DNA of 63,849 bases, the filler included, from Reclinomonas americana ATCC 50394 (taxonomy: Eukaryota), in the NCBI GenBank assembly GCA_048213135.1. It is 3 parts of 2 records of this genome, joined end to end, with 100 filler letters (N's around TTAATTAATTAA, not from the genome) between each part and the next. Parts side by side here need not be neighbours in the genome. Positions count along the whole stretch, not along the records: positions 1 to 27,757 come from PS015024.1; 2 more parts are not named here. One strand, given 5' to 3'. Below the pieces are notes generated by a model. That model was given only the letters and a program-made list of their open reading frames with translations, was not told the DNA's origin and searched no databases. This document shows, piece after piece, positions 22,979-35,542 of this stretch. The first letter of the stretch is position 1. Each line of letters begins with the position of its first letter. The translations under genes were made by a program, and so were the position numbers.

Positions 22979-24003
22979 TCACTTGTCGCGCTTGGAGACA
23001 AAGCCGGCAGTCGGCGGCGCAATGTGAATCAGCAGGAACTGCGCCGCCAAGTACGTCAGCATGACCCACGTGTGCTGGAAGGGAATGGTGGCGGCACCAA
23101 AGTTGCCAATGGTCAGCAGCAGATCGGAGACCACAAAGCTGAGGCCACCGAAACGCGACAGCGAGCCGACCATGGGCGAGGCCGAGGAGCCGGCATCGAG
23201 TGCACGCCAGGCGGTCGTGGTGAGGAACGTCACATAGACAACGCACGGAATGCGGATATCCTCCGGCACGTACTCCCACAGCCAGAAGCGGAAAATGCTG
23301 TGCGTAATCGCCTCCAGCACGAGCAACGTCACCCAATTGCGCGGGTAGCCGCGGCCGCCAGGTCCACCGAAAGTGAAGGCGTAGAGGTAGCCGAAATGCG
23401 CAATGAGGAACGACACCATGCCCAGCATGAAATACAGCATGTCGCCGGCGAAGAGCAGGAAGGCATCGCCGGCCAGCGAGAACACCGTGGCCAGCAGGCG
23501 GCTCCAGCGGAACCATGCCGGCGCCGGCTCTTGCAGGACCTGCACAGAGAGAGAGAGACAGGTGAGGGAGACAACGAGACTCGAGTAGTGTGGTCTTGTC
23601 TTGCGCGCAACGTAGATCGAGAGAATCTGTGACGTTCAATCAGCCAAAAAAACAGCGCACAAGAGGACGTAAGGCACGTGTGACGTACCACAAGCGGCCA
23701 CAGTTTCTGCATGAGAGACAAGAGACAAGAGAGAGTGCAGGTGTGTGAGACAAGACAACAATCGGACACGGGTCATTTCTCTCACCGTGAGGAAACCCGG
23801 TCCGTGGTTGATCTCATTGAGCAGATGCAGCGCCGAGGCGGCAATGTACGACGAGCGCACCAGTGTCTGTGTGCGCGTGTGAGTGTGAGTGACAGACAAT
23901 GTCCCGAAAAACGTACACGCGCACATGCAGAACGCTCTGCGGCACTCACACACAGACTCTCTCTCACCAGTGAGGCCGACGCCTGTTTCTTCTCGGAATG
24001 CAT
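22979..24003 (-). CDS. YhhN/TMEM86 lysoplasmalogenase-family membrane protein
   Basis: FSLAGDAFLL, GMVSFLIAHFGY, FVVSDLLL, VMLTYLAAQ motifs; includes an 18-nt (KLWPLV) and a 15-nt (ILSIY) micro-exon. Confidence 0.88.
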
Positions 24004-24209
24004 GATTGATCGGGTTACAGTTATCATAATCCGAAATTACATAACAAATCGGTAACCTCTTTCTAACGCGGCGCTGTGGTCTGCTTCCATCGTCCTCCTT
24101 CTCGTCCACACGCCTCTGCACGTTGCTGACCTCACCAGCGCAGTGCGCTTTCTCAGTGGTGGCGCTGCGATTCCACCGTCCACTCCATTGGTCTGCCAGT
24201 ATTGCGCGG

Positions 24210-24228
24210 AAAGGTAGGTGGGTCAACT
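24210..24228 (+). repeat. Left terminal inverted repeat
   Basis: AAAGGTAGGTGGGTCAACT, the exact reverse complement of 27584-27602. Confidence 0.95.
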
Positions 24229-24709
24229 GATGTAAGCCGACAGCGCAAAATCCCGTCGATCGGCAATCCAAACTGGACTTCTCAGACACATGGTGGTCGC
24301 GGCGGCGGAGGTGGTGCGGGCCCAGTGAAGGTGCACGCGTGGACTGTATTGGCTCATTCTGTAGCCAATGAAACGAGCTACAAGGTGACGCTTGCGGATC
24401 TGCTCGGCGACCTTCCGCCGAGGAGAGCGGTGCGTCCAAAGTCAAAAGTGCTGATTTTTCGCCAGAAATCGACCTTGTTGTCGCCGTGCCGACACCTTCC
24501 TCCGAGGCGCTGAGGTCACACCGAGGGTCATCTGAAAGGCCTCTCGCTGGGCTACTGTGTAAATTCAGAAAAAACAACGCCACTATTTCCTGTCGTCCAG
24601 GAGGACTGAAACACATGCCGAGATCCTCATTTCGCGCGCGCGCGAAACGCGTTGCCTCGGAAATAACAACTCTGTCTTTTTTGTGTCGCGAGAGGGGGCC
24701 AACAGGGTC

Positions 24710-26971
24710 ATGTGGGGGGCGCCGACCATGGCCAGCGGCCATGATGTCGAGATGCATGACCGCGCGTCGCGATCGTGCCTCGTGTCTCCGCCAGCGCCCA
24801 CTCGGCATTGGCGCCGGCAGTCTCCTGTCACCTCCACCGGGGCACAAGCCGCCGCAGCTGCAGCGCACGTTGCACGAGCAAGTGTGCATGCATCAAACGG
24901 CAGTGACAGCGGTGTCGCGCAGCTGCAGGTGAGAACATGCCTGCCTGCCTCTCGACACCGAGTTGTCTCTCTCACTGTTCCTTGACCACAGTTTGGCGCA
25001 CACCCCTCCGCCTCAGCCGCACGCGTTCTGGCGTCGTCGTCAGACCCCCAGTTCACCATGCCGATGCCCAGTGATGCCGTTTTGTGGTCCCCGATGTTGC
25101 CGACGCCTCCTCAATCATTTCCGGTCAGTTTCCCGCTCGGAAGTCCGCCACAGCTGCCCCCTTCGCTCTACGGTCACCAGTGGACCCCTCCCGCGGTTGG
25201 CATGTCATCCGTGGTGCAGACGTACGGTGACGCTGCACCGAGCACCGTCACCATCAACTTCAGTGGCACGCCGGAAGGACAAGCCACGTACGACGTCGCC
25301 TCCCTCTCTCGCTTGCCTCATGGTTTGGGCGCGGATGCCAGTGGCAGCTTGTTCCTGACACCGACGTCACCGTTGTCGCCGCCGCCGCCCCCGCCGCCCG
25401 CTGCTGCCGCCGCGTCGCACACATTCGTCAAACTGGTGCGCTACCCTGGACTGCTCGCCAAACTCGTGTGCTCCTTGGTCAAGGCCCCGTCGTCGGCGGA
25501 CGGAGTCGCCTGTGATGTGCGTGCATGTGCATGTGTGTTTGTGTGTGTGTGAGAGAGAACGGTTGTGAGCTCATTGTCGTGCATTCTCCCTCCTCAGCCC
25601 GAGTTCACGCCTTTTGCGGCGAGAGTGCAGTCGTCGCTGTGCACGGACCTGTCAGCGACAGTGGTGGACATGCTGTGCGCGCATCAGCGTGACGGCCGTG
25701 CACCTGCGCGGCAAGGTCGAGCCCGCGTAAGGCCGACATCGCTCGCCGAGGCACTTGTCGAGAGGCTTGTCGACACAGTGCAACAGATCCCCAGTTCCAG
25801 TGACGACGACGACGACGACGACGGCCTACAGTTGCTAGCCGAGCGCCGATCGCTCACCGCTGTCCTCTTCATCAACCACTACCGTTGCAACAGCCGTGGC
25901 TGAGCACGTGGCACGTCTCCTCGCGATCGATTACGGTGTGGAAGTCGGTCGGCTGTTGCGTCTTTGTGTGCGTGTGGGAAAGGAACCAGAGTGGCGATTA
26001 TTCCTCACATGTGTGCCGCCCTCTGTGCGTAGGGAGCCGAATGCGGCGATGCTGTGGGGTACTCATCACGAGGACTGCGCACTTCTCACGTTCTGTCTGA
26101 ATCACCCCCACGAGAAGGTGCTGAAGACGGGAGGGTATTTGCGAATCGCACACTGCCCGGTGCAGGATGCACACGGCGGGCAAGTTACTGTACCCGTTGA
26201 GGTGTTCGCCTCACCAGATGGTAGGTCATCTGGTTGCTTGTTCTTCGCATCATCACATCGCTCTGTTGCTCATTGATAGGTGTCACGCTGCGCGCAGCAA
26301 TGAGCGCCACTGATGGTGATGGGTATCACTACTTGCTGGAGGTCAAGTGTCCGTCACCATTCTCCGCCACCTCCTTCGCTCTGTCGAAACCGCCACGTCG
26401 CTTCGTTTCCGCCCAGTACATGGTTCAAGTTCAGCTCCAGCTCTATGCGACGGACTTTCCCTTGTGAGTGCGCCGTATCGATGCGGTACCGATTCAGCCA
26501 ACTCATCAACCGTGTGCACAATGCAGGGCAAAGTTGCTGTCGTGGACGCCGAGTGGCATGTTCGTCTTCGAGATCCCTCGCGATGACACACTCCTCGGGC
26601 TGCTGTTCCCGCTGCTGGGCCACATGGCTGGTGTTGTTCAGCGAGTATTCGAGTACAGTCGCGATCGCGGTCACGACTCACGCAGCACCGACGTCAAGTT
26701 CCCGGCCGAATGGGGCGACGATCCACATACCTGGCGACCTCTACAGGCCACTACCGAGATCATGGAGAAGTTTGAGCGCTTTGTGTGCCGCCTCTCGCGT
26801 GCCTGTCGAAAGGCCGAGGAAACCTGTCGAGCCTACAAGGACGTGTACACTGGGCCGCTGGGCAGACTGTGGGTGCGTAGCGTGGCTCCTATGGTGCCGC
26901 CGATGCCTGCGGCGGACGTGAAGATGGCCGCGGCCGAGGCGGTCGGTCCCAACGGCGCGCATGCGCAATGA
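24710..26971 (+). CDS. YqaJ-like / lambda-exonuclease (PD-(D/E)XK) family protein, spliced
   Basis: NAAMLWGTHHE, FASPD/G, LLEVKCP, YMVQVQLQL motifs joined by frame-preserving GT-AG introns (26221-26279, 26464-26526); Pro/Ser-rich N-terminus. Exon structure near 25730-26030 is ambiguous (stop at 25901-25903). Confidence 0.85.
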
Positions 26972-27583
26972 TCTTCCGATAATGTAATGCAAGAGCCTTC
27001 CTTTCCTCCATCAGCAAATGCTTTGCTGCTCCGTTTCACGTGCAATGGTGGGAGAGAGAGTTTGGGTATGGTTCCCTCTTACTGGAATAGTCGCGAGGCT
27101 GCGAGGAATCATGTCATGGGGGGTCGGCGACGATGCATGAAATGTGACGAATTCATGACCAAAAAAAAATTGACGGACTTCTCGGTCGCTCTTGGTGTCA
27201 CGCGCGCAGCGCGACACCCACCGACTCACTCGCCGATGTTCTGAATTTACACACTACCTGAAGCGCTGCTCTACACGCTCATATGACGCACGTCGCCACA
27301 GACGAGGGCAGATGTGTCGGCACGACGCACACTTTGAGCGCTTCGATTTTTTCGCGCCGAAACTTGCGAGCTCCTGTCGTTTTTCTCGCGCCACGAGTAA
27401 GCACGGCGGTCGTGCCGAGGCTCAGCAGGTGCGCCCGTGAGTCGCGCGTCGAATGGCCTTAGTCAGGGCGCAAGGAAGTGCGTGGGTGACGAGAACCGGC
27501 AATTTTCGCGCGAGGGGGGTGTCGATCTTTGACTCAGCCGATTTTCGCGCCCGACCTCTGTCGGCTTACTGACAAATCGACGA

Positions 27584-27602
27584 AGTTGACCCACCTACCT
27601 TT
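27584..27602 (-). repeat. Right terminal inverted repeat
   Basis: AGTTGACCCACCTACCTTT followed directly by ATTGCGCGG. Confidence 0.95.
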
Positions 27603-27801
27603 ATTGCGCGGGAAAGTCAGTCGTTCTCACGCGCGTTGGTGTGTGTGTGTGCGCGTGTGTGTGTGAGTGTGTGTGAGAGCGGGCACACTACACACTCATG
27701 GAGAAGCTCACGGCGTTCATGACGGAGGTGCGGCAGTTGACTCACTTGTTTCTTCTCNNNNNNNNNNNNNNNNNNNNNNNNNNNNNNNNNNNNNNNNNNN
27801 N

Positions 27802-27813
27802 TTAATTAATTAA
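27802..27813. other. Artificial contig linker TTAATTAATTAA
   Basis: Palindromic six-frame-stop 12-mer between N runs; identical copy at 56834. Confidence 0.92.
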
Positions 27814-27970
27814 NNNNNNNNNNNNNNNNNNNNNNNNNNNNNNNNNNNNNNNNNNNNGTCTCTCCCTACTTCGATCTTTGATTCTCGTTTCCCCCTCCGT
27901 TTCTTCCCCCTCTCTACCTTCTTCTTTACTTCTCCCTCTTTTCTTATTCGATTGTTGATTGCCGTCGCAG

Positions 27971-32501: not shown

Positions 32502-32730
32502 CTGTGCGGTGAAAAGTGACCAAAGATGAGCAAATAAACAAAACAGCAGCAGGCACCTCCGCGAAAGATACAAANNNNNNNNNNNNNNNNNNNNNNNNNN
32601 NNNNNNNNNNNNNNNNNNNNNNNNNNNNNNNNNNNNNNNNNNNNNNNNNNNNNNNNNNNNNNNNNNNNNNNNACGCGCAGAGCGACAGTCAGTGCGCAGC
32701 CGGGGAAACTCACACTTGTCACCGGTGCAG

Positions 32731-34456
32731 TCTGCGACCGGAGAATGAGCGTGAGAAGAACGGGCCATTCCACCGACTGGTGCGCGCCGTCGACACCAAC
32801 GTGGTGGTGTTTGATCCGTCAGACGAGGAGCCGGCCAAGTGCACGCCGTCGGGTGTTGGAAAGCCGCTGTTTGGCCGCAAGCCCAAGGACATTCGATACG
32901 CCTTTGATCGCGTTTTTGACGAACGCACCACGCAGCTGGAGGTGTACCAGAACACGACTCGCTTCCTGCTGCCGGGTGTCATGAACGGATTCAATGCCAC
33001 CGTGTTTGCGTACGGTGCCACTGGTGAGTCTCCATTCCTTACTCCTTCTCCTGCGGTCCTGTTGCCAACTCTGCTGGCGAGTGTGCAGGTGCCGGCAAGA
33101 CGTTCACGATGAGTGGCTCCGACGAAAGCGGACCCGGCGTCATGGTGCTGACCATGCGCGACCTGTTCAAGGCCATTGACGCCAAGCGTGACGAAGTGAC
33201 CTGCCGCGTCTCCATGCAATATCTCGAGGTCTACAACGAGACGATCAAGGATCTGCTCCTGCCGCACGACAGCCGGAAGGGACAGAACCTGGAGTTGCGC
33301 GAGGACAAGGATCGCGGCATGACCGTGGCCGGCCTCACCGAGTACTTCCCGAGCACGGCCGAGGAGGTGCTGCAGATGTTGCAGTTTGGCAACTCGAACC
33401 GCACCAAGCACCCGACCGAGGCCAACCAGGAATCCAGTCGCTCGCACGCCGTGCTGCAGGTGAGCCGCTCTCCTTCGGTGCGAGTCATGCGACACAGTGA
33501 TTTTCTGACCCGCCTGTCTGCAGATCCTCGTGGAGCAGCAGCCGCGCACCGCCGATGTTAAGGCCGACGTGCGCATCGGCAAGCTCTCCCTAATTGATCT
33601 GGCTGGCAGTGAGCGTGCCGCCATGACCAAGAACGAGGGCGCCCGGCTGAAGGAGGGCGCCAACATCAACAAGTCGCTGCTGGCACTCGGCAACTGCATC
33701 AACGCTCTGACCACGGGCAAGCGGGGCGCCTACGTGCCCTACCGTGACAGCAAGCTGACGCGTCTGCTAAAGGACTCGCTCGGCGGCAACTGCCGAACCA
33801 TCATGATTGCGAATGTCAGCCCGTCCAGCATGTCGTACGAGGACACCTACAACACCCTGAAGTATGCCAACCGCGCCAAGAACATCAAGACGCGCGTCTC
33901 CCGCAACGTCCTCAACGTCAACTTCCACATCAGCGAGTACAACCGCATCATCCAGGAGCAGCGTGTGGAGATTGAGGAGCTCAAGCGCAAGATCACGGAA
34001 CTGACCGAGAGCCAGCGAACGCCAGACTTTGAGGCCGAGCAGGAGGCCGAGAGGCGGCAGGTGGAAGCCATGCAGCAGCGCATGCGCGACCACTACAGCG
34101 AGCGTATGAAGGTCAAGCGGAGCCTCATGGTGTTGGAGGAGCGCGAGCGCCTCAACAAGTTCTACCTGTCGGAGGCCAAGGAGAAGATTGACAAATTCCG
34201 CTTGGCGAATCCGCACGCCGACCTGCCACTCAGCCTGTACACGCTGCAGCGACACATTGTGGCGTGGCAGAGCGAGATGAATGAGGATTTCAAGCTGATG
34301 GAGGAACTCATGCAGCAGGACATGGAACTCGGTGAGCCTGTCTGTGCTCAGACTTTTTCCTGTTTATCATCTCGCCCTCCTCATTCATGCGCTTTTCGTG
34401 CAGATGCCGAGTGGAAGCAAGTGGATGAAGACATGCACAACCTGAAGGACTGCTCT
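32731..34456 (+). CDS. Kinesin-8 (KIF18/KIF19-like) motor and neck, on a flipped contig
   Basis: YAFDRVF, FAYGATGAGKT P-loop, [79 protein letters not shown]. Confidence 0.93.
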
Positions 34457-35542
34457 GTGGTTTTCGCAGTGGNNNNNNNNNNNNNNNNNNNNNNNNNNNN
34501 NNNNNNNNNNNNNNNNNNNNNNNNNNNNNNNNNNNNNNNNNNNNNNNNNNNNNNNNNNNNNNNNNNNNNNNNNNNNNNNNNNNNNNNNNNNNNNNNNNNN
34601 NNNNNNNNNNNNNNNNNNNNNNNNNNNNNNNNNNNNNNNNNNNNNNNNNNNNNNNNNNNNNNNNNNNNNNNNNNNNNNNNNNNNNNNNNNNNNNNNNNNN
34701 NNNNNNNNNNNNNNNNNNNNNNNNNNNNNNNNNNNNNNNNNNNNNNNNNNNNNNNNNNNNNNNNNNNNNNNNNNNNNNNNNNNNNNNNNNNNNNNNNNNN
34801 NNNNNNNNNNNNNNNNNNNNNNNNNNNNNNNNNNNNNNNNNNNNNNNNNNNNNNNNNNNNNNNNNNNNNNNNNNNNNNNNNNNNNNNNNNNNNNNNNNNN
34901 NNNNNNNNNNNNNNNNNNNNNNNNNNNNNNNNNNNNNNNNNNNNNNNNNNNNNNNNNNNNNNNNNNNNNNNNNNNNNNNNNNNNNNNNNNNNNNNNNNNN
35001 NNNNNNNNNNNNNNNNNNNNNNNNNNNNNNNNNNNNNNNNNNNNNNNNNNNNNNNNNNNNNNNNNNNNNNNNNNNNNNNNNNNNNNNNNNNNNNNNNNNN
35101 NNNNNNNNNNNNNNNNNNNNNNNNNNNNNNNNNNNNNNNNNNNNNNNNNNNNNNNNNNNNNNNNNNNNNNNNNNNNNNNNNNNNNNNNNNNNNNNNNNNN
35201 NNNNNNNNNNNNNNNNNNNNNNNNNNNNNNNNNNNNNNNNNNNNNNNNNGCTTGCCACGAGCCCGCAGACGATCGCAACATTGAACAGACGATGGCCGAC
35301 CGTTGAAACGGTCAGCAAATTTCAGGATTTTTCTATTATCGTGCAGTGCGAGAGAAGGCACGTTTCACCGCACACGCCACCGTGCCACACGCCGCCGTGC
35401 TCTCGCTGACTTGTGTACGTCTTGCGTGTGTGTGGCTCTCTGTCTGTTTGTGTGCGTGCGTGCGTGCGTGTTGCAGGGTACTGCTTTGTGTGAGCTGAGA
35501 CGAACGAGTGCCGCAACGTTTTCCGCAAAGTGACCGTTCGAT

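Follow-up and report, generated by a model that had tools for sequence, protein, structure and literature searches.

A Terminal Inverted Repeat Element of Reclinomonas americana with a 9-bp Target Site Duplication and a YqaJ-Type Nuclease Gene as Its Sole Recognizable Cargo

Described Transposons with Similar Cargo or Similar Duplications

Among the described DNA transposons, ISL2EU and Kolobok come close in gene content to the element reported here. In ISL2EU, which belongs to the PHIS superfamily, the protein of the second open reading frame (ORF2) has a YqaJ domain (PMC4482050, PMC4122938). The role of ORF2 in transposition was stated to be unknown by the PHIS survey, in which ISL2EU is described as having a 2-bp AT duplication, terminal inverted repeats (TIRs) that usually begin with GG, and a DDE/THAP transposase in its autonomous copies (PMC4482050). 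KolobokE possesses an accessory nuclease of the PD-(D/E)xK, lambda-exonuclease-like kind downstream of its transposase domain, the KolobokD and KolobokP lineages also carry nucleases, and the duplications of Kolobok are TTAA-specific and 4 bp long (PMC9587614). Other groups come close in the length of the target site duplication (TSD). Mutator-like elements (MULEs) have TSDs of 8–11 bp and long TIRs; they acquire host ORFs and may carry extra ORFs, transposase-less derivatives are common among them, and Pack-MULEs carry gene fragments (PMC6446971). Merlin has an 8- or 9-bp TSD and TIRs with a conserved terminal 5'-GG (PMC8101967), and a secondary source gives a 9- or 10-bp TSD for AcademH and helicase or nuclease partners for Academ lineages (PMC10045372). 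We analysed 63,849 nt of DNA from Reclinomonas americana ATCC 50394 (assembly GCA_048213135.1), hereafter the window, which consists of three parts of two records, positions 1–27,757 being from PS015024.1. The window contains a TIR element of 3,393 bp between 9-bp duplications (24210–27602), with a spliced gene for a YqaJ-type nuclease inside. This element is a genuine and rather clean transposon insertion with an unusual cargo, and it is best classed among the non-autonomous TIR elements, as one with a 9-bp duplication that has kept, or carries, a nuclease of the accessory type.

The element was compared with each of these groups. It resembles ISL2EU as a DNA transposon with TIRs and a gene for a YqaJ-domain protein; unlike ISL2EU, with its 2-bp AT duplication, initial GG and DDE/THAP transposase, it has a 9-bp TSD, ends that begin with AAAGG, and no transposase. 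With KolobokE it shares a lambda-exonuclease-like PD-(D/E)xK nuclease in what would be an accessory function, but neither border shows TTAA and the nuclease does not lie downstream of a transposase domain. The likeness to MULEs is broader and includes a 9-bp TSD within the 8–11 bp range, extended ends, an extra ORF and the lack of a transposase. In contrast to MULEs, the ends consist of a 19-bp TIR and discrete blocks rather than of one continuous long TIR, and no MURA-type DDE transposase was present among 47 six-frame ORFs of the element. The element is overlapped by 51 stop-to-stop frames of at least 50 aa, of which four were omitted, three because most of their length is in the left flank and one because it extends into an N gap. 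Since a missing MURA transposase is what would be expected of a non-autonomous member, dependence on a MULE is still compatible with this result. The TSD also falls within the 8–9 bp of Merlin, but the ends (AAAGG) lack the terminal GG, and neither an IS1016-like transposase nor a match to DDE_Tnp_IS1595 was found in the element. AcademH is similar by TSD length alone (9 bp, or 10 bp in a second reading), its own range coming from the secondary source, and it differs in that the 47 ORFs here contain no transposase or helicase domain. Outside the transposons, the YqaJ/lambda exonucleases of phages and viruses (PF09588, TIGR03033) have the same catalytic D...ExK core, followed by a Q/Y-rich helix. 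Unlike them, the gene studied here is eukaryotic and spliced, its product has a long N-terminal extension of low complexity, and no annealing-protein gene lies beside it; the sequence similarity is marginal (23–24 bits; tblastn E = 7). Judged from its sequence, the element departs from ISL2EU, Kolobok and Merlin in the features tested, and the length of its TSD fits MuDR, Merlin or AcademH.

An initial annotation of this DNA had relied on the TSD range and long TIRs of MULEs, the YqaJ domain of ISL2EU and the nuclease of Kolobok, and this background agrees with the sources (PMC6446971, PMC4482050, PMC4122938, PMC9587614). It had further treated the 9-bp TSD as a mark of MULEs and had offered two options, a non-autonomous element, Pack-MULE-like or a helper in a bipartite family, or an undescribed type whose nuclease assists mobilisation. 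The TSD does lie within the MULE range, but it does not belong to MULEs alone, considering the 8–9 bp of Merlin and the 9–10 bp of AcademH. The lack of a transposase together with TIR and TSD accords with a non-autonomous element, whereas the comparison with Pack-MULEs fits poorly, because these carry fragments and the cargo here is a whole gene whose catalytic motifs are intact. No description of a TIR element with a YqaJ-type nuclease as its sole gene was found in the literature searched, supplementary tables and Repbase being outside its scope.

Ends, Target Duplication and Nuclease Gene

The coordinates of the features are collected in table 1. The initial annotation had reported a perfect 19-bp TIR bounded by a 9-bp repeat, an alternative 10-bp reading of the duplication, and no N gap within the element, and we arrived at the same picture. 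The TIR and the repeat were read directly and the arms are fully complementary; the 10-bp reading is visible in the sequence, where it takes in the T before the left copy and shares the last T of the right arm; and no N run was found inside the element. The whole 63.8-kb window was scanned for exact inverted 10-mers within 12 kb that were flanked by an exact duplication of 7–11 bp, and the single structure obtained was this element. At these minimal criteria one match was found in 6 of 100 block shuffles, and the actual 19 + 9 bp are far above the criteria. With up to 3 mismatches allowed, the 19-mer AAAGGTAGGTGGGTCAACT matched only the 2 arms in the window (0 expected from 100 shuffles), and relaxing the search to 5 mismatches added two unrelated sites with 4 and 5 mismatches. 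Further copies of the ends, of the sub-terminal blocks or of the gene were not found elsewhere in the window. In viral contigs the exact 19-mer had no match. Its sole match in metagenome contigs (L001, 5141–5159) was taken as chance, as this contig has a GC content of 31%, contains the 19-mer once and is otherwise unlike the element. Searching the element against Rfam gave just a sub-threshold microRNA match, located within a GT microsatellite of the right flank, and the tandem repeats were microsatellites only.

It might be supposed that inverted ends and a direct repeat surround an ordinary host gene by chance or mis-assembly, with no insertion at all. The assembly is fragmentary, the element ends 146 bp before the scaffold end, and the matches in 6 of 100 shuffles could be quoted in the same sense. 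But the hand-calculated expectation for a 19-bp perfect TIR abutting an exact 9-bp duplication is about 1e-8 per window, the two ends share three more exact inverted blocks at corresponding distances, and the element contains no N gap; we thus consider such an origin extremely improbable. Two separate miniature inverted-repeat transposable elements around a host gene were also ruled out, since each end has the outer repeat only and one duplication bounds the whole unit. Just outside the right duplication, 9 of the 15 bases at 27612–27626 agree in register with the beginning of the left TIR (direct-repeat family D3), which may reflect chance or a target preference.

Counted inward from the ends, four colinear exact inverted blocks were found at 1–19, 23–34, 276–286 and 347–361 nt. 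On the right side block 2 is shifted by an 11-nt insertion, and blocks 3 and 4 are shifted by 3 nt. Shuffled sequences contained 0.4 blocks on average, the longest of 12 nt, and the control in direct orientation yielded one 9-nt block. Between the blocks and past them, the sequences of the two ends are barely or not alike (z of 2.1, 0.6, −1.5 and −1.3 against shuffles), which rules out a continuous long TIR in decay. Considering that the sequence between the blocks is unlike while the blocks themselves are exact, the ends are made up of a short perfect TIR and discrete conserved modules. The "long imperfect TIRs" named earlier need qualification, a 19-bp TIR with three separate conserved inverted blocks being the more apt description. 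Discrete blocks of this kind would fit the pattern expected of protein-binding sites rather than that of a young long repeat. Of the 6 copies of the octamer TTTCGCGC in the window, 5 are within the non-coding ends of the element; the octamer resembles the E2F-type consensus. The palindrome formed by two of them may belong to the promoter or may be bound by a transposition protein.

Table 1. Features of the element, in order along the window
Feature	Positions	Strand	Remarks
Left copy of 9-bp TSD	24201–24209	none	ATTGCGCGG, read directly; also recovered by the window-wide TIR+TSD scan
Left TIR, 19 bp, perfect	24210–24228	+	AAAGGTAGGTGGGTCAACT; arms 100% complementary (inverted-repeat pair I4)
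Sub-terminal inverted block 2, left, 12 nt	24232–24243	+	23–34 nt from end; exact partner 27558–27569
Sub-terminal inverted block 3, left, 11 nt	24485–24495	+	Pair I19; 276–286 nt from end; partner 27314–27324
Sub-terminal inverted block 4, left, 15 nt	24556–24570	+	Pair I8; 347–361 nt from end; partner 27239–27253
18-nt palindrome, two opposed TTTCGCGC	24630–24647	none	Some 80 bp before the first ATG in frame; self-match
Exon A, tentative	24728–24928	+	Start codon 24728; open frame; low-complexity N-terminus; GC at third codon positions (GC3) not above GC; no domain
Exon B, tentative	24992–25516	+	175 codons, about half Pro/Ser/Ala/Gly; no Pfam or NCBIfam match
Exon C, tentative	25598–25895	+	3' boundary (intron 3) tentative: 15 frame-preserving GT..AG pairs
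Exon D	25990–26220	+	Predicted N-terminal half of nuclease domain, ends in ASPDG; 5' boundary tentative
Exon E	26280–26463	+	Catalytic ExK (LLEVKCP) and Q/Y-rich helix of YqaJ domain
Exon F	26527–26971	+	Predicted end of nuclease fold and about 100 further residues without assigned role; stop 26969–26971
Sub-terminal inverted block 4, right	27239–27253	−	350–364 nt from right end
Sub-terminal inverted block 3, right	27314–27324	−	279–289 nt from right end
Right sub-terminal region with three TTTCGCGC motifs	27350–27550	+	Motif starts 27350, 27504, 27543
Sub-terminal inverted block 2, right	27558–27569	−	Exact inverted partner of 24232–24243
Right TIR, 19 bp, perfect	27584–27602	−	Exact reverse complement of AAAGGTAGGTGGGTCAACT
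Right copy of 9-bp TSD	27603–27611	none	ATTGCGCGG, directly abuts right TIR; also found by the window-wide TIR+TSD scan

One multi-exon gene lies between the ends, and the element includes 518 bp upstream and 631 bp downstream of it. The evidence that its C-terminal part is a nuclease came from several searches. Exon E matched the Pfam family YqaJ (PF09588) with an E of 5.8e-05 and 23.8 bits (cut-off 22) over profile positions 104–149 of 150; its matches to TIGR03033 (E = 0.0014, below the family cut-off) and to a PHROG exonuclease family (E = 0.022) were weaker. Exon D alone had no match in Pfam, PHROG or NCBIfam. In a language-model feature search of the Atlas, 26 of the 30 matches of exon D were YqaJ clusters, the top match scoring 0.95 with 191 shared features, at a recognition value of 2140, which is less than the tool's 2300 mark. 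A tblastn search against phages returned one phage exonuclease (two database records) with an E of 7, which served only as the seed for a YqaJ profile. This profile was built from 120 relatives of the one phage YqaJ exonuclease and is narrow, all of them being at least 51% identical to that protein. The spliced product scored 23 bits against it in an unbroken alignment that covers ASPDG, LLEVKCP and the Q/Y-rich helix and reaches exon F; ASPDG and LLEVKCP are in register with asPDG and lEiKcP of the profile, and the helix is aligned to YyaQiqvQl. As the alignment is unbroken, it supports the D/E and E/F splice junctions and places the catalytic Asp and Glu-x-Lys where they are expected. The assignment of the C-terminal part of the cargo to the YqaJ/lambda-exonuclease PD-(D/E)XK domain, with its D...ExK motifs intact, is thus supported.

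The product is predicted to have 592–645 residues depending on intron 3, with a tentative start. The four assignable introns are 63, 81, 59 and 63 bp long and have GT..AG boundaries and a GC content below that of the exons; the 63-bp intron after exon A reads GTGAGA...CACAG. The introns of a neighbouring kinesin gene are of 65 and 64 bp with GTGAG..TGCAG, and the introns of the nuclease gene appear by sequence to be of the host type in size and boundaries. The solutions for intron 3 (table 1) could be discriminated neither by the phage-YqaJ profile nor by an Atlas search on exon C. The N-terminal ~340 residues (exons A–C) are of low complexity, with about 50% Pro/Ser/Ala/Gly in exons A–B, and no family match was found for them in Pfam or NCBIfam; the Atlas search on exon C likewise gave no usable match. 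The GC3 values of the nuclease-gene exons (0.63–0.73) were clearly below those of the neighbouring kinesin exons (0.81–0.89), one host gene being compared. On the minus strand, a stop-free frame of 418 codons (23636–24892) runs from inside the element across the left TIR into the flank. It had no family match and was taken as a spurious frame in GC-rich DNA rather than as a gene.

Among the 47 ORFs of the element, the only Pfam family of note was YqaJ, in 1 of the 47, and no transposase, integrase, helicase or DNA-binding family was detected in them at E ≤ 0.1. The earlier description of a spliced YqaJ/lambda exonuclease as the sole recognizable cargo is upheld by the PF09588 match on exon E, the profile across the junctions and the host-type introns. 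The same description had noted no DDE transposase inside the element, and indeed 0 of the 47 ORFs match a transposase family at this threshold.

Movement of the Element and the Role of the Nuclease

Lambda-exonuclease-type enzymes are processive and resect 5' strands from DNA ends. YqaJ/lambda-exonuclease enzymes are not known for site-specific cleavage, strand transfer or DNA joining. The exact 9-bp duplication, on the other hand, indicates that the target was cut with a stagger of 9 bp, which is a mark of transposase-type strand transfer. Based on the cut-and-paste anatomy, the known activity of the exonuclease family and the lack of an encoded transposase, we read the element as a non-autonomous TIR transposon (class II, cut-and-paste) that was moved in trans, and we hold this to be very likely. 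A transposase encoded elsewhere in the genome would have cut out and inserted the element. It would recognize the 19-bp ends, and probably also the sub-terminal blocks, and would open the target by cuts staggered by 9 bp, as in MuDR/MULE, Merlin or AcademH. Considering that the gene is whole, has intact catalytic motifs and fills the element with its own flanks, and that nucleases recur in DNA transposons, we favour an origin from a two-gene family, either by deletion or as a helper. The element would most likely be an internal-deletion or "helper" member, and the autonomous copies of the family would carry both a transposase and this nuclease. The nuclease would serve in an accessory role, comparable to that of the nucleases of ISL2EU and KolobokE, and would not itself perform strand transfer. 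We infer that it would act on the breaks left by excision, where it may resect 5' strands at the double-strand breaks and thereby steer donor-gap repair or process the excised DNA. The statement as a whole, in which the element was moved in trans and the nuclease is the family's own accessory gene, seems to us evenly balanced between true and false.

The main rival is gene capture, according to which a non-autonomous, MULE-like element with a 9-bp TSD took up a complete host YqaJ gene and the nuclease has nothing to do with transposition. The introns resemble those of the host in size and boundaries, no DNA-binding domain was found by Pfam or NCBIfam in the low-complexity N-terminal half of the protein, and MULEs are known to acquire host ORFs (PMC6446971). 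However, Pack-MULEs carry fragments (PMC6446971), and the present cargo is complete, flanked by its own sequence on both the upstream and the downstream side, and its catalytic motifs are intact. The GC3 of the exons relative to that of the kinesin gene (the one host gene compared) is more transposon-like than would be expected of a well-adapted host gene, and nucleases recur as accessory genes of ISL2EU, Kolobok and Academ. We regard capture as rather unlikely, though it deserves to be weighed seriously.

Another reading makes the element autonomous and dependent on its nuclease. The YqaJ protein, perhaps through its N-terminal half, would recognize the ends and cut, host repair would finish the reaction, and the element would stand for a new class free of DDE transposases. 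The nuclease is the only gene between the ends and its catalytic motifs are intact, ~340 N-terminal residues are without an assigned function, and the conserved sub-terminal blocks need a binding protein. Against this, the YqaJ/lambda exonucleases are end-resecting hydrolases, and the 9-bp duplication is exact, which is the signature of a transposase-type staggered strand transfer. Moreover, with about 50% Pro/Ser/Ala/Gly, exons A–B look disordered and unlike a DNA-binding or RNase-H-like fold, and neither 1.84 billion proteins nor viral contigs contained relatives that would show the protein family travelling with such ends. This reading is improbable. Less credible still is a viral remnant, that is, an integrated giant virus or polinton-like virus of which only the YqaJ gene was left. 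YqaJ genes are described as common in giant viruses and virophage-like elements in the sources drawn on, but the ORF scans of the element and the window brought up no further gene of viral kind, the introns of the gene are spliceosomal and of the host type, clean TIR and TSD borders enclose 3.4 kb, and the viral contig collection yielded no relative.

The searches for relatives were done with several parts of the gene. HMMER, with exon E, the intron and exon F read through as the query (X at the stop), found no credible nuclease relative among 1.84 billion representative proteins; the sole match, to 9 stretches of a repetitive animal-type protein, was judged spurious. Exon F had no relatives among the longer proteins of the protein library, and exon E had 0 matches to PDB sequences at E ≤ 10. 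In the viral contig collection exons E and F gave 29 and 12 pattern matches, respectively, none of which was confirmed. A control search with an exon of the host kinesin-8 gene returned no self-match, and the best among the 120 matches listed was 59% identical. Since there was no self-match, the proteome of this lineage is absent from the protein library, and the negative nuclease searches are uninformative on paralogues in this genome.

Several observations weigh against a non-autonomous element with its own accessory nuclease. Within the literature scope given above, no YqaJ-bearing MULE, Merlin or Academ was found (supplementary family tables and Repbase again lying outside it), and the word "exonuclease" occurs 0 times in the MULE survey (PMC6446971). 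The rest of the window has 165 ORFs of 130 aa or more; the 15 shortest were dropped, and of the 150 scanned, all of at least 135 aa, 0 has a transposase domain. As no nuclease relative was detectable in the searches above, it is not possible to assign the gene to a clade of nucleases borne by transposons. The element is a single copy in the 63.8-kb window, and we infer its mobility in trans from its anatomy. The gene model is a prediction in its first ~340 residues and in intron 3. A more far-reaching reading is an undescribed TIR lineage with 9-bp duplications and a lambda-exonuclease-type nuclease as its hallmark, of which this element would be the first member seen. It would be either a two-component family, with nuclease and transposase on separate elements that have the same ends, or, more boldly, a family that moves free of DDE transposases through nuclease breaks and host repair. 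Because it would rest on a single copy, we consider this lineage improbable at present.

Surroundings and Meaning of the Element

Spacers of the form N44-TTAATTAATTAA-N44 are present at 27758–27857 and 56790–56889. They join separate scaffolds, so that adjacency across these positions is artificial. On the other side of the element, an ORF of the YhhN family (Pfam E = 5.5e-31) at 22982–23635 on the minus strand has its beginning 566 bp away from the insertion site and lacks a start codon ahead of the domain, from which it follows that a first exon or promoter lies towards the element. The element may therefore be located in the 5' region or the first intron of the YhhN gene. The rest of the window consists of ordinary host genes, encoding a kinesin, a dynein heavy chain, Mob1, a leucine-rich repeat protein, Tim10, a tRNA-intron endonuclease, profilin and a PH-domain protein. 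The kinesin gene is of the kinesin-8 type (32675–34471, plus strand), and the named relatives among the matches listed include heterolobosean amoebae and a jakobid. As the best kinesin relative listed is only 59% identical, the host lineage is poorly represented in protein libraries.

Accessory nucleases recur across the DNA-transposon superfamilies ISL2EU, Kolobok and Academ, and their role is unknown, as stated outright for the ISL2EU ORF2 (PMC4482050). The present element keeps the nuclease only, its ends and duplication are perfect, and the catalytic motifs are intact; it is thus a natural case of "separation of function". If the gene was captured from the host, the element would be a transduplication, unusual for its completeness, in a protist lineage that has been little sampled. 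If the nuclease is instead the family's own accessory gene, the element would add a YqaJ-carrying family to the superfamilies with duplications of about 9 bp, among which none was found described in the literature searched. And if further copies and a transposase-encoding partner exist, the need for the nuclease in trans would become testable for excision, gap repair and copy-number gain.

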